NCBI GenBank assembly: GCA_012518415.1
Contig: JAAYSH010000051.1
Coordinates: 1 to 43,611 of the forward strand
DNA length: 43,611 bases
Direction: 5' to 3'
Source of the DNA: Erysipelotrichaceae bacterium
Lineage (GTDB): Bacteria > Bacillota_I > Bacilli_A > RFN20 > CAG-826
The notes below the pieces were generated by a model. The model saw nothing but the letters and a program-made list of their open reading frames with translations. It was not told the origin of the DNA and made no database searches. Each line of letters starts with the position of its first letter. The stretch's first letter is position 1. This document shows positions 26,589-30,134 of the stretch, one piece after another. A program made the position numbers and the translations under genes.

Positions 26589-27608
26589 TTAACCATAATA
26601 TGTAGCTTTACCAAGATTAACACCAGGTGTCCAGGAGGAGTGAATGTAACCACACAAGTGACCCTCATAAGTCGCTGAGGCCCAGTTAATGTTTGTTACA
26701 TCTACTGATTGATTCCATTTATTATCCCATGTAGGCGTTAAAGCAGATGAGTCGTGACGGGTGAAAACAATATTGTTATAACCAACTGGAATTGTTACTC
26801 GATATTGTGTTTTGTTCAAGTGCTGCATGAATGTACTAAAGCCATTGTTAAAATCATTTACAAAATAATATACAGCGAACTTTGCACTAGAAGTGCCCCA
26901 GTCCGTGAAGTCTTTGATATCTAAGTATACGTATCTTAGCCATCTACCGGCTGTATTAGAAGTGGTTTCATACAAGTATTCATAACTACCTTGGATTGTG
27001 CCGCCTGCAACACTTTGATCATAAGCGCCGCTTGTTTGTCCACTTACGTTTGTCGCTGTTCGTCTAAATGTGACATTACTTACAGCACTTGGGACATACA
27101 GTTCGTAGACTCCATCACTCGTATAACTAGCTGCATTTGAATAATATCCCGTGGATGTACCTGGTCTTGTATACCAAATTGAGTAATAGCGACCAAAAGC
27201 ATTCCATGTATTAGCTTTAAATTTTATTGTTCTTGCTGGTAGCGATGTAAAGGTTGGGTAGTAATTAGTATCTGCAGAAATGGGTCCAATTGGTGTATTC
27301 GCGAATGTTTGCCAACTATTATGATAGTAAACCGCAGCAGAAGTTGAAGGTTTATAAACGCTACTTCCTCCATATGTTGGTGTCTCGCCACTTGCAACTT
27401 CTTGCGTGTATAAAACAGTTGTGCGGTCTTCGTCATAAAAAGTCGCCGTATATGTTGAAGACTTAGCAAAATTAATGTTAAAACCTAGTGAGCTGTTACC
27501 ATGTTTAAAATTTCCAAAACTTGAACTTACAGTTAAAAGTAGCGCGAAAACGCCACCGATACTAATAAGCGATAACATATTACTTGATTTTTTTCGTTTG
27601 TGTTTCAT
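26589..27608 (-). CDS. Secreted protein C of the SipW-type operon: leader, one Listeria-Bacteroides-repeat-like module, then two tandem CBM-like beta-sandwich modules
   Basis: 339 aa. The leader is a basic N-terminus plus hydrophobic core ending SSSFGNF, followed by LGFNINF. Residues about 53-121 resemble the Flg_new repeat (YTATF...YYHNSW...TNYYPTF). Residues about 126-205 and 224-310 are an internal duplication (W..Y..W/Y...[IV]P...[IV].F.R...[DN]QSV). There is no cell-wall or membrane anchor. Confidence 0.75.
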   Translation of the reverse strand: MKHKRKKSSNMLSLISIGGVFALLLTVSSSFGNFKHGNSSLGFNINFAKSSTYTATFYDEDRTTVLYTQEVASGETPTYGGSSVYKPSTSAAVYYHNSWQTFANTPIGPISADTNYYPTFTSLPARTIKFKANTWNAFGRYYSIWYTRPGTSTGYYSNAASYTSDGVYELYVPSAVSNVTFRRTATNVSGQTSGAYDQSVAGGTIQGSYEYLYETTSNTAGRWLRYVYLDIKDFTDWGTSSAKFAVYYFVNDFNNGFSTFMQHLNKTQYRVTIPVGYNNIVFTRHDSSALTPTWDNKWNQSVDVTNINWASATYEGHLCGYIHSSWTPGVNLGKATYYG

Positions 27609-27632
27609 GATAAAAGTAAACGTTTCTTTAAA

Positions 27633-28277
27633 TTATTTTTCTTCTTCATTGGGAGGGAAATCCTCACTATGCTTTTTATCGTCAGGAACTTTAGCAGCCT
27701 TTTTATCTTGACGCTCATCATAGAAAACGATGTATAACCATGTGCCAAAAAAGATGACTCCGACTAGTGAAAGGGCGAAGACGCCGTAAGGTGATTGAAC
27801 ATATAAAACGAAATCACCCATGCCGCGTATCCTTTTAGTCACAACTCCTTGAATATCTTCGAAATGTACTAGCGGGTCATCGATTGAATTAGCGTCCCCT
27901 CTTGTTTTAAACCAATAAGCCCCAGATTCGCTATCATAAAAAGAATCATGGACCCGGTGAACAATCATTACATCAATACCAGGAGAGTGAAAAATAATTA
28001 CATCATGTTTCTTAATGTCTTCAGGACTTTTTGGCCGCTTGGCGAAAATAAGATCGTATTTATAATAACGATCTTCAACACTTTCTAAAGCTTCTGCATT
28101 GCTTTCGTGTACTGTTTCCATTGATTCGGAAATTATTACGGATGAGCGGATCCCAAAGATGGGATATTTATAACCGCTGAACTTATCGACCATACTCCAA
28201 ATAGAAAGCACCACAAGAAAACCAAGCACAAGCCAGCCTATAATAGAACTAATTTTCTTAAAAACATTTTTTTTCAT
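27633..28277 (-). CDS. sipW: Signal peptidase I, ER/archaeal type (S26B, SipW-like)
   Basis: N-terminal TM anchor, then the catalytic Ser box VIISESMET (compare SGSMEP). His box VMIVHRV. TRGDANSIDDP box. C-terminal TM segment and a charged tail, as in SipW. I prefer the ATG at 28277 (MKKNVFKK...) because the listed TTG at 28361 would force translation through a perfect 12-bp hairpin. Confidence 0.8.
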   Translation of the reverse strand: MKKNVFKKISSIIGWLVLGFLVVLSIWSMVDKFSGYKYPIFGIRSSVIISESMETVHESNAEALESVEDRYYKYDLIFAKRPKSPEDIKKHDVIIFHSPGIDVMIVHRVHDSFYDSESGAYWFKTRGDANSIDDPLVHFEDIQGVVTKRIRGMGDFVLYVQSPYGVFALSLVGVIFFGTWLYIVFYDERQDKKAAKVPDDKKHSEDFPPNEEEK

Positions 28278-28291
28278 AATTGTAATTGAGA

Positions 28292-28322
28292 AACAAGGGT
28301 GGGCGAAAGACCCACCCTTGTT
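28292..28322 (-). other. Perfect 12-bp GC-rich stem-loop between secreted protein B and the signal peptidase gene (intra-operon attenuator or RNA-stability element)
   Basis: AACAAGGGTGGG / CCCACCCTTGTT with a 7-nt loop. On the minus strand it is followed by TCTCAATT, which is only a weak U-tract. Confidence 0.6.
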
Positions 28323-28350
28323 AAATAGGAAATAAGAATTTTTAAATTTA

Positions 28351-29214
28351 TTAACCAGCAATTAATCCATCGGCATCAGAACCACTCCAGTAGAATGAAT
28401 AAGTGCCAGCGGTATCAATTACATAGTTGTCACCAGTAGACCAAACACCATTATTATGACCTTTGAGTTGATCACCAGCAGCAAAATCACCGGTATACAT
28501 CCATTCAAAGTTGTTTGATTTTGGGTTAGGAACCATTTGATATTTATCAACATCGGCCCAGTTTGAATCACTCATACTACCAACAATATAAGCGTAACTA
28601 TAAGTTTCTGGATCGGCCCAATTGAGGGTGATGGAAGATAGTGATTTTTCCGCGACAGCGGTAGTATATGCTAGCCAACCAATTTGATCAGCGCCACCAA
28701 CAGCAATTGCGCGGTGGAGTTGAGCTTTAATACCAGATAAATACGCTGGGAAGCCTTCGAGTTTTGCTCTTAAGGTAACTCCGTCAGCATCAGCAACAAA
28801 TAGTGCTTTTTCTGCAAAGAAGTTGTTACCTGCGCCATCTAACTCATTGTCATTATTAACATCGACAAGAATATGTGACCCGCCATCAACTAATGCTTTT
28901 GCATAATTTGCGTTAGGAGCGACCATAACGACTTCAAAAGTACCAACAACGATATCTTGTGTATATGTTGAATCGGCACTCTTTGTTGCTCCTAGTGTCA
29001 AATCATTTGTAATGGCATTTTCAGGATTTAGTGCACCTGGGGATTGATCACCTAGAGTAATTGTGTAAGTAAGGTCACCAGTAGTCCGGATGTTAATGTT
29101 GAAACCAACGGAATCCGGATTAATTTTGTAAAGTGCGAATGATGCACCAATAACGGCGACGCTGAGGAAACCGGCCGCTAATCCGATTAAGGACTTTTTC
29201 TTAAATCGTTTCAT
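28351..29214 (-). CDS. Secreted protein B of the SipW-type operon (candidate major subunit) with a C-terminal CBM-like module
   Basis: 287 aa. Leader MKRFKKKSLIGLAAGFLSVAVIGASFALY, then VGFNINI. C-terminal residues about 205-277 (IVGSMSDSNW...W...GDNY...AGTYSFYW) look like a starch/glycan-binding beta-sandwich. Its start overlaps the stop of the upstream gene (TAATG). Confidence 0.75.
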   Translation of the reverse strand: MKRFKKKSLIGLAAGFLSVAVIGASFALYKINPDSVGFNINIRTTGDLTYTITLGDQSPGALNPENAITNDLTLGATKSADSTYTQDIVVGTFEVVMVAPNANYAKALVDGGSHILVDVNNDNELDGAGNNFFAEKALFVADADGVTLRAKLEGFPAYLSGIKAQLHRAIAVGGADQIGWLAYTTAVAEKSLSSITLNWADPETYSYAYIVGSMSDSNWADVDKYQMVPNPKSNNFEWMYTGDFAAGDQLKGHNNGVWSTGDNYVIDTAGTYSFYWSGSDADGLIAG

Positions 29215-29753
29215 TATGGACCTACCTCCGCATCATAAGAAATTTGTAGATACCCTAAGGTTGCAGGTTCGCTAACTAAGTACTCGTCGTAATTAGCTTG
29301 GGCAATGCTTACTCTAATGTAGTAGGTAAGTAAATCCTCCGCCCCGAACTCTGGTGTTAGGGTTGAGCTAGTAGCAGTAGAAGAGAGTGTTGCCACTGCT
29401 GTTGTTTCCGCAACAGACCATGATTGAGTTGCAACTTCGATTGTAACTCCAGCTTGTCCGTTTTGGTAATCAAACTTAACACGTTCGATTTGGCCGACTG
29501 ATGCAGATTTTAGGGGCTTTTTAACTTCGACTGACCGGAACTGAGGCGCACCTGGGCTAAGTTCGGTAATGTCGGCAATGTCGGCTGTGCTGCCAAACTC
29601 AAGAACAATGGCAGAATCAGCAGGTGTAGGGGTAATTTGCTGTGATGCACCAGTAAAAATAAATGCTGAGCTAACACCAACACCTGCTAGTGACACAATT
29701 AAGGCCCCTAACAATGCAAACTTTTTCGACCTATTTGATTTTGTCGAACTCAT
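29214..29753 (-). CDS. Secreted protein A of the SipW-type operon (Thr/Ala/Ser-rich)
   Basis: The ATG at 29753 has AAAGGAG upstream, whereas the listed ATG at 29774 contains that RBS. Leader MSSTKSNRSKKFALLGALIVSLAGVGVSSAFIF. I recognise no family for the mature part. Confidence 0.7.
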   Translation of the reverse strand: MSSTKSNRSKKFALLGALIVSLAGVGVSSAFIFTGASQQITPTPADSAIVLEFGSTADIADITELSPGAPQFRSVEVKKPLKSASVGQIERVKFDYQNGQAGVTIEVATQSWSVAETTAVATLSSTATSSTLTPEFGAEDLLTYYIRVSIAQANYDEYLVSEPATLGYLQISYDAEVGP

Positions 29754-30134
29754 AATTGTTTTTTCTCCTTTCATATATTATGATTCGTGATTGAAAAATT
29801 ATCATCATGCAGTAGAAAAGCAAAAGCGCGTTTCTTTTATATAATTTTTCTTCTCATTACTTAAAATACACATAAACTACAATGTTTTGTAAAGAGAAAT
29901 GGATTAATAAATGTCTAATAAACATATAAATATAGATGTAATGTGTGTTTTTGTATTTGTAAAGAAATATTTAATATGAAAAAATTCACTTAATATTTCA
30001 AAAAAATATGAAAAATTATATAAGTTTTCTCCAAGAGAAATCCGATGTTAGAAAAATTCACTCATAGAAAGGATTTTTAACTATTTATAATAATAAATGC
30101 TATGATAGTAGATGGAATGAAAGAGGAGAGATAT

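Follow-up and report, generated by a model that had tools for sequence, protein, structure and literature searches.

A signal peptidase encoded with three secreted proteins

The DNA analysed here is a 43,611-nucleotide stretch (hereafter the window) from an Erysipelotrichaceae bacterium, contig JAAYSH010000051.1 of GenBank assembly GCA_012518415.1. It carries a compact module of genes for a type I signal peptidase and three secreted proteins, which we call A, B and C. An earlier reading of the letters made without database searches (the sequence-only reading) had singled out this module as a candidate extracellular fibre or adhesin system with its own peptidase of the SipW type. The four co-directional minus-strand genes that it described are all present in the list of open reading frames (ORFs), where A, B, the S26B peptidase and C together occupy positions 26589-29753. 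The features of the region are given below, beginning upstream of gene A.

29754..30101, minus strand: upstream intergenic region, AT-rich, which also lies ahead of the divergent gene at 30102
29214..29753, minus strand: gene A, a 179-residue secreted protein of an unannotated family of about 170-205 residues; comes first wherever the module occurs
28351..29214, minus strand: gene B, a 287-residue secreted two-domain protein; the marker gene of the module
28292..28322, minus strand: GC-rich hairpin of 13 base pairs between gene B and the peptidase gene
27633..28277, minus strand: S26B (SipW/SEC11-type) signal peptidase I, 214 residues counted from MKKNVF; the ORF reaches back to a TTG at 28361
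26589..27608, minus strand: gene C, a 339-residue secreted protein with a B-type leader and a variable body
26541..26570, minus strand: intrinsic terminator, a 12-base-pair stem followed by a T-run, between gene C and the convergent rpsR; ends the operon

Gene A can also be read as part of a longer ORF (29214-29774, 186 residues). Inside that ORF an AAGGAG Shine-Dalgarno sequence lies nine nucleotides upstream of the ATG at 29753, so the shorter protein of 179 residues is the likely product, and the start site proposed earlier is thereby backed. The stop codon of A and the start codon of B overlap in the sequence TAATG, again as proposed, and GGAGG stands ahead of this overlap. Promoter-like matches in the intergenic region 29754..30101 are no more frequent than expected from shuffled sequence. 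The module has a GC content of about 0.39, slightly higher than that of its neighbours (about 0.36) and set in a window of about 37% GC. It lies on the opposite strand between two gene clusters conserved in Firmicutes, rpsF-ssb-rpsR (25557-26519) and a multi-pass membrane protein gene followed by gdpP-rplI-dnaB (30102-35270).

A divergent peptidase of the S26B type

The peptidase carries a serine box (SESMET), a histidine box (IVHRV) and a GDANSIDD box, the three signatures by which the sequence-only reading had assigned it to the endoplasmic reticulum (ER) and archaeal type. In an alignment of six orthologues, S52 and M53 of the SxSM motif, H107, R108, G127, D128, A129, N130 and D134 are invariant. 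The protein is hydrophobic at both ends, with 19-residue hydrophobic windows starting at residues 5-16 and 157-169, and the second of these corresponds to the extra C-terminal membrane segment noted earlier.

Profile scans point the same way. The model for the archaeal and ER type, TIGR02228, scores 46.6 bits with the window peptidase, under its cutoff of 51.85, and exceeds that cutoff in the orthologues from three other loci (60.4 bits in L001, 58.7 in L002 and 56.3 in L010; L003 and L004 give 45.3 and 47.0). The closest relatives of solved structure are human SEC11C (E 2e-6) and SEC11A (E 4.5e-6), with the histidine and aspartate boxes in alignment. Among the six peptidases scanned, the bacterial-type model TIGR02227 reached at best E 0.0037, in one orthologue only. 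A housekeeping peptidase of the LepB type was rejected on the strength of the Ser/His S26B boxes and this poor TIGR02227 match, and the earlier choice of S26B over LepB is upheld. The SipW equivalog model NF046067 gives 40.1 bits with the window protein and 32-55 bits across the six, against a cutoff of 190. All six aligned peptidases also have a family-specific insertion of about 14 residues between the serine box and the next strand. Judged by these features, the protein is predicted to be a catalytically intact, divergent S26B enzyme that has a SipW-like layout but is not a SipW orthologue.

In some of the orthologous peptidases the C-terminus is drawn out into a long cytoplasmic extension, rich in lysine, of 60-180 residues past the second membrane segment (L002:2519-3643, L013:1582-2544 and L010:3181-3954).

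The gene set recurs in ten lineages

A scan of genomes yielded one metagenome-assembled genome (MAG) and a scan of metagenomes yielded only the same species. Ten independent lineages with flanking DNA were available for comparison: the window and the loci L001, L002, L003, L004, L010, L013, L016, L018 and L019. Gene A is followed by gene B in all ten, although contig L003 ends within gene A. The peptidase gene comes directly after B, or one gene further on in L010, where the order is A-B-C-peptidase. Across these lineages the gene set recurs at 22-50% protein identity. A C-type protein is found in eight of the ten; L019 has none, and the C position of L004 is taken by a 702-residue protein with a lipoprotein-type leader. 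The core of the module is thus A, B and the peptidase, and C is optional and variable.

The 702-residue protein (L004:11585-13693) contains at least four repeats of an N[FI]YF[YF]S...W module that resembles, by eye, a carbohydrate-binding module (CBM) and has no Pfam match. The pullulanase-like protein encoded next to it (L004:13683-16592) begins with this module too.

In one lineage the association between peptidase and C-type protein goes beyond adjacency. The two form a single ORF of 397 residues at L016:10994-12187 and in the independently assembled L017:4007-5200. The C part of the fusion retains its own internal leader (...SKASALHYKTVSPVSFTIGG and ...IFATSYSKASALHYKTVSPVSFTIGG), placed after the C-terminal membrane segment of the peptidase. 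An internal leader in this position implies that the fusion protein may process itself, and the ORF can be viewed as a Rosetta-stone fusion of an enzyme with its presumed substrate.

The hosts range from the window lineage, at about 37% GC, to the visibly GC-rich MAG of an 'uncultured Firmicutes bacterium' (L004). Conserved adjacency, the fusion and the variety of hosts together exclude chance adjacency, and they make it unlikely that the peptidase serves as a housekeeping enzyme. The proposal that the peptidase is dedicated to its neighbours is therefore borne out by its presence beside A and B in all ten lineages and its fusion to a C-type protein in L016 and L017, and in the suggested survey of related loci the module was found to co-occur. 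Of the three outcomes that the sequence-only reading had counted against itself, none was seen: the enzyme did not turn out to be a housekeeping LepB, homologues of A, B and C were not routinely found away from a SipW-type peptidase, and none of the three proteins matches a well-characterised family.

At one locus only, L001, a gene for a CotH-family kinase (L001:124-822) lies directly upstream of the module.

Three unannotated secreted proteins

Proteins A, B and C each have exactly one hydrophobic segment, which is N-terminal, and all three lack a lipobox, any LPXTG-like motif and a hydrophobic anchor at the C-terminus. These features agree with the basic-hydrophobic leaders and missing anchors reported earlier. 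Sortase anchoring and lipoprotein anchoring were rejected for A, B and C, which have neither the LPXTG-like motif nor the lipobox.

Pfam and NCBIfam gave no match for A, B or C, in keeping with the earlier failure to recognise a TasA or camelysin core in any of them. The Peptidase_M73 model (PF12389) found nothing at E<=1 in A, B, C or their relatives, and nothing at E<=0.01 in 65 B proteins. When PDB sequences were compared with profiles of A, of B, of the N- and C-terminal domains of B separately and of C, nothing significant emerged.

Orthologues of A from L001, L002, L004, L010, L013 and L016 are 22-35% identical to the window protein. The B family is far larger than a quick search suggests. 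An exhaustive profile search among 1.84 billion representative sequences returned 156 representatives of 50%-identity clusters at E<=1e-3. Of these, 118 reach E<=1e-10, and nearly all of the 156 are 275-330 residues long and match from end to end. B is thus a real, architecturally uniform and unannotated family. A word-indexed protein search had given five 90%-identity clusters for B (four relatives beyond the query) and the query alone for A and C; homologues of A and C do exist, and it took the exhaustive profile search to make the B family visible.

In a structure model, B comprises an N-terminal β-sandwich (residues ~35-200) and a CBM-like β-sandwich (residues ~203-287). Protein C is 43% identical to the product of L003:1771-2775, and the C slot is otherwise variable. 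The body of C is probably made of β modules resembling CBM25 and CBM26.

A leader motif that extends past the predicted cleavage site

The hydrophobic segment of the 65 B proteins ends in a common motif, G-[TS]-[SA]-[FY]-A-L-Y, in which A27 is conserved in 57/65, L28 in 57/65 and Y29 in 60/65. Conservation continues beyond this point as ..P-[ED]-D-K-x-I-x-I-G-..T..D. With arrows at the predicted cleavage sites, the window's B leader reads ...VIGASFA↓LYKINPDSVGFNINI, the C leader with its N-terminal strand ...SSSFG↓NFKHGNSSLGFNINFA, and the A leader ...GVGVSSA↓FIFTGAS. By the −3/−1 rule, cleavage would be expected at S-F-A↓L-Y in B and at S-S-A↓F-I in A. The leaders of A proteins end differently from those of B, in the pattern ...[AST]-A-[FM]-[IV]..G-A. 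Prepilin-type leaders were rejected because the cleavage motif stands after the hydrophobic segment and not before it.

Proteins B and C of the window match each other over their first 60 residues (E 9e-6 by BLASTP), and the C-slot proteins as a group carry the same N-terminal module as B on unrelated bodies. A hidden Markov model (HMM) of the B leader matches the C-slot proteins of L001, L002, L003, L010 and L018 with E values from 3e-11 to 4e-6. Beyond the C slots, its one match in the set of 151 ORFs that these loci contain is a weak one to protein A of L018 (E 2.8e-4), although several of the encoded proteins have lipoprotein-type leaders. Such conservation after the predicted cleavage point, common to B and C, two proteins of one operon that are otherwise unrelated, gives the strongest reason to suspect that the new N-terminus has a function of its own. 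If confirmed, the motif [TS][SA][FY]AL[YF] would provide a new recognisable leader for annotation.

By eye, the sites in B, C and A resemble that of TasA, which reads ...GGGTWA↓AFND, and the motif of B and C has a further parallel in the cleavage site of camelysin. The mature side of this site was checked against the fibre structure 8aur, in which TasA begins at A28 with AFND.

A hairpin that may set subunit ratios

The hairpin at 28292-28322, which follows the B stop codon, has a predicted folding energy of -22.6 kcal/mol (z = -5.2) and was also flagged as terminator-like. Hairpins with stems of 11-13 base pairs and unrelated sequence occur at the same position in L003 (1128-1155), L002 (2479-2507), L013 (1535-1560) and L016 (10958-10986), so that five lineages including the window have such a structure between the B stop codon and the peptidase gene. 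It probably acts as an attenuator within the operon, or stabilises the mRNA 3' end, and thereby governs how much of A and B is made relative to peptidase and C.

Strong Shine-Dalgarno sequences precede both A and B, and the two genes are translationally coupled. Together with the hairpin, these features suggest a larger output of A and B than of the peptidase and C, which is the pattern expected of structural subunits relative to an enzyme and a minor component.

Association with α-glucan genes

A link to α-glucans is found in five of the ten lineages (L001, L004, L013, L016 and L018). The C-slot protein of L001 contains a Pfam CBM26 domain (PF16738) whose score of 36.3 bits clears the cutoff of 28.1, and that of L002 gives a weak match to CBM26 at E 0.18. 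In L018 a large protein with CBM_20 (PF00686) is encoded directly upstream of A, and in L013 the gene for GlgB lies directly downstream of the module. The module of L016 sits between the gene for a CBM48 protein and genes for GlgB, glycogen phosphorylase, glycoside hydrolase family 77 (GH77) and pullulanase. The L004 module is flanked by genes that, judged by eye from their translations, encode an α-amylase lipoprotein, an MsmX-type ATPase and a pullulanase.

The C-terminal domain of B, which follows the pattern Y.YAYVVG..n.W....Y.MVPN....EWM....l..G...K.k.Gd.WS., gives hints in the same direction. Among the 65 B proteins two match CBM53 (PF16760; best E 7e-4) and one matches SusF_SusE (E 1e-3). 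The best PDB match of its profile, also the best of all the profiles compared with PDB sequences, is the dextran-binding surface glycan-binding protein (SGBP) BT3088, known as SGBPdex, at a non-significant E of 0.07. By structure the domain resembles 8jn0, the N/F domain of the alkaline amylase Amy703 (Foldseek probability 1.0, TM-score 0.58 on the target). For the window's own B and C, which score under every CBM threshold, the earlier statement that they end in carbohydrate-binding-like modules is backed by weak or indirect matches only. Binding of α-glucans by these two proteins would follow from their orthology.

Structure models and likeness to TasA

A model of full-length B built from five sequences has a predicted local distance difference test (pLDDT) score of 64.6 and shows two β domains. 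Its only convincing local Foldseek match is the Amy703 N/F domain. Since the search was confounded by the presence of two domains, it was repeated with the N-terminal domain alone, for which a 40-sequence alignment gave a confident model (pLDDT 84.6, predicted TM-score 0.80) of a β-sandwich that includes two helices. No PDB chain matched this model at E<=1e-3. The TasA fibre structure 8aur_A ranked second of 350,542 chains, with E 5.6e-3, probability 0.95 and TM-scores of 0.42/0.34. TapA entries are within the top 50, and CNA, RrgA and the diphtheria-toxin R domain score close to TasA.

Profile alignment by hhalign gave a probability of 0.2% for the N-terminal domain of B against mature TasA. 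For the A family and the TasA precursor the alignment spans columns 1-69 and brings cleavage site and L.PG motif into register, at a probability of 11% and a pairwise E of 0.0027; part of the score comes from the leader. The suggested comparison with TasA thus yields a β-sandwich in the N-terminal domain of B with 8aur_A ranked second, set against an E of 5.6e-3, a TM-score of 0.42 and hhalign probabilities of 0.2-11%. We treat this likeness as a lead and not as a result.

Host and other genes of the window

A transfer-messenger RNA gene (43153-43524, plus strand; Rfam, 123.8 bits) encodes the tag GNRNHSSYAFA, which confirms the YAFA ending reported earlier. No tRNA genes were found in the window, and UGA is used as a stop codon there. 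The window also encodes a GlmU-like protein (63-1271), a PAP2 phosphatase (13251-13883) and a DUF368 protein resembling undecaprenyl-phosphate translocases (13870-14823). These three genes favour a host that builds undecaprenyl-linked envelope polymers and argue against a wall-less one. The earlier suggestion of a wall-less host is accordingly not supported, either by these genes or by the use of UGA as a stop.

The gene at 30102-31124 (plus strand), divergent from gene A and just upstream of gdpP, encodes a multi-pass membrane protein of 340 residues that has no Pfam match; in Bacillus this position is occupied by yybS. Three other ORFs of the window, at 1633-2106 (157 residues), 36617-37192 (191 residues) and 41717-43105 (462 residues), likewise fall into no Pfam family at the thresholds used.

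Interpretation

We think it rather probable that the module is a self-contained secretion and processing unit, whose products form an extracellular or surface assembly that binds α-glucans and is matured by a private peptidase. A, B and C would be exported by the Sec pathway by means of their long basic-hydrophobic leaders. The membrane-bound S26B Ser/His peptidase encoded with them would then cleave after a small-aromatic-Ala sequence and before Leu-Tyr in B and C, and between Ala and Phe-[Ile/Val] in A; both the identity of the cleaving enzyme and the exact site are inferred from the sequences. Cleavage would uncover the conserved new N-terminal segment, and the products would assemble outside the cell or on its surface. 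In such an assembly A and the N-terminal domain of B may be the abundant structural β-sandwich parts, and the C-terminal domain of B together with C may contribute carbohydrate-binding modules, most likely for α-glucans such as starch, glycogen or pullulan. As the mode of polymerisation we would favour donation of an N-terminal strand, in the manner of TasA and TapA.

Several observations weigh against this interpretation. The window's B and C fall under the Pfam gathering threshold of every CBM family, and the module is flanked in the window by housekeeping genes and not by glucan genes. The models of SipW-cognate signals in NCBIfam (TIGR04088 and related) found nothing at E<=10 in the three window leaders and seven relatives. 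No homology between the A family and the N-terminal domain of B was detected by hhalign (probability 0.3%), and the relationship to TasA does not reach significance by Pfam, hhalign or Foldseek.

A narrower form of the same interpretation supposes a fibre like that of TasA, in which the N-terminal strand of each subunit enters the β-sandwich of the next, so that a filament of A, B or both displays carbohydrate-binding modules. C would dock onto this filament by means of its N-terminal strand, which is of the B type, much as TapA docks on TasA. In TasA the donor strand comprises residues 28-38, the eleven that follow the cleavage site; it polymerises the fibre, and the N-terminus of TapA is similar (PMC9674648). 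The common post-cleavage sequence LYK..P.D..I.IG of B and C, whose bodies are unrelated, mirrors the donor-strand sequence of TasA and TapA (PMC9674648). The rank of 8aur_A for the N-terminal domain of B, the TapA entries in the top 50 and the register of cleavage site and L.PG between the A family and the TasA precursor (E 0.0027) are further points in its favour. The hairpin after B fits the stoichiometry of a major subunit, and the sipW-bsaA-bsaB-bsaC locus of Clostridium perfringens follows the same four-gene logic (PMC11580942). Yet the Foldseek values for TasA (E 5.6e-3, TM-score 0.42/0.34) are matched by unrelated β-sandwiches, the hhalign probabilities are 0.2% and 11%, Pfam detects no Peptidase_M73 domain, and in the monomer model the I.I.G strand folds into B's own domain. 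We therefore regard a fibre of this kind as a plausible but rather unlikely outcome, and the fully specified version, a donor-strand filament in the style of TasA that carries α-glucan-binding modules (a 'starch-capturing fibre') and is matured by a private SipW-like peptidase, as doubtful.

Alternatively, A, B and C could be non-polymeric glycan binders, secreted or held at the surface like SusE/F of Bacteroides or the lipoproteins by which Gram-positive bacteria bind solutes and glycans, which the peptidase merely releases or matures. The CBM-type matches and α-glucan neighbourhoods would suit such proteins as well, as would the lack of significant TasA homology and the 702-residue lipoprotein-type protein with CBM-like modules (by eye) in the C slot of L004. 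This explanation, however, accounts neither for a private S26B peptidase nor for the equal conservation on either side of the cleavage site, and it gives no reason why A, which is free of CBMs, should always be present and first. We judge it improbable, though worth keeping in view.

That the enzyme is the cell's general type I signal peptidase, placed beside A, B and C incidentally, is suggested by the position of the window module among rpsF-ssb-rpsR and gdpP-rplI-dnaB. Against this stand its adjacency to the module genes in 10/10 lineages with differing neighbourhoods and both low- and high-GC hosts, its fusion to a substrate in L016 and L017, and a leader motif private to members of the module, and we hold a general role to be very unlikely. 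Least credible of all is a sporulation or spore-coat module of the sort in which TasA was first described (as CotN), since only a single locus of the ten has the CotH-family gene upstream of the module, CotH kinases are not confined to spore formers, and the surroundings of the module, in the window as at the other loci, contain no sporulation genes.

Implications

Confirmation of an α-glucan-binding assembly would add new families (A, the N-terminal domain of B and a divergent CBM-like domain) and might reveal a new way in which Firmicutes of the gut or of anaerobic digesters capture polysaccharide. Because the whole system consists of four small genes, it can be tested by heterologous expression. 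If the products do form a starch-capturing fibre, it would give Gram-positive bacteria a third means of keeping polysaccharide on the cell surface, in addition to sortase-anchored enzymes and cohesin-dockerin amylosomes, and would be the first use of the TasA assembly principle for nutrient capture instead of a biofilm matrix.

Comparison with known systems

Our search of the published literature found no description of this module. To our knowledge, SipW-type peptidases with private substrates have been recognised only for the biofilm-matrix fibres of TasA/TapA, CalY and BsaA. What is new here is that the same SipW logic appears with three unannotated protein families, in at least ten uncultured Firmicute lineages and repeatedly within loci for starch and glycogen utilisation.

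One close parallel is tapA-sipW-tasA of Bacillus subtilis, with sipW-tasA/calY of B. cereus. These operons pair a dedicated S26B peptidase having two transmembrane segments with private secreted β-sandwich substrates, as the module is predicted to do. We know of no link between TasA and α-glucans, whereas the substrates of the module have CBM-like parts and are associated with α-glucan genes. They also differ from TasA and TapA in showing no Peptidase_M73 or TIGR04088-type match, and the module peptidase departs from SipW in its score (40 bits against a cutoff of 190) and in the extra insertion of about 14 residues after the serine box. Fibres are, for the module, a hypothesis. The predicted cleavage pattern is alike, a small-aromatic-Ala sequence followed by a hydrophobic-aromatic one, and in both systems two differing substrates share the segment after the cleavage site (TasA and TapA; PMC9674648).

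The sipW-bsaA-bsaB-bsaC locus of C. perfringens similarly combines a SipW-type peptidase with two secreted structural proteins and a third, accessory protein that has a binding domain (PMC11580942). BsaA and BsaB are detectable remote homologues of TasA that form isopeptide-locked oligomers, whereas A and B of the module are not detectably TasA-like by sequence; the accessory protein of C. perfringens has a von Willebrand factor A domain and not a CBM, and the gene order differs.

As an enzyme, the module peptidase finds its best relatives, by solved structure and by HMM, in SEC11A/C and the archaeal signal peptidase I (TIGR02228, MEROPS S26B), with which it has in common the Ser/His pair and the GDxN..D box. 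Those are general peptidases, whereas the module enzyme is linked in an operon to private substrates and, in one lineage, fused to one. Small extracellular β-sandwich glycan modules encoded beside GH13, GH77 and pullulanase genes are familiar from SusE/F and the SGBPs of Bacteroides and from the CBM26, CBM20 and CBM53 domains of Gram-positive amylases, and the module resembles them in this respect. Such starch-binding proteins are lipoproteins, sortase substrates or attached to enzymes; those of the module instead carry a leader of the SipW type and lack any anchor motif.

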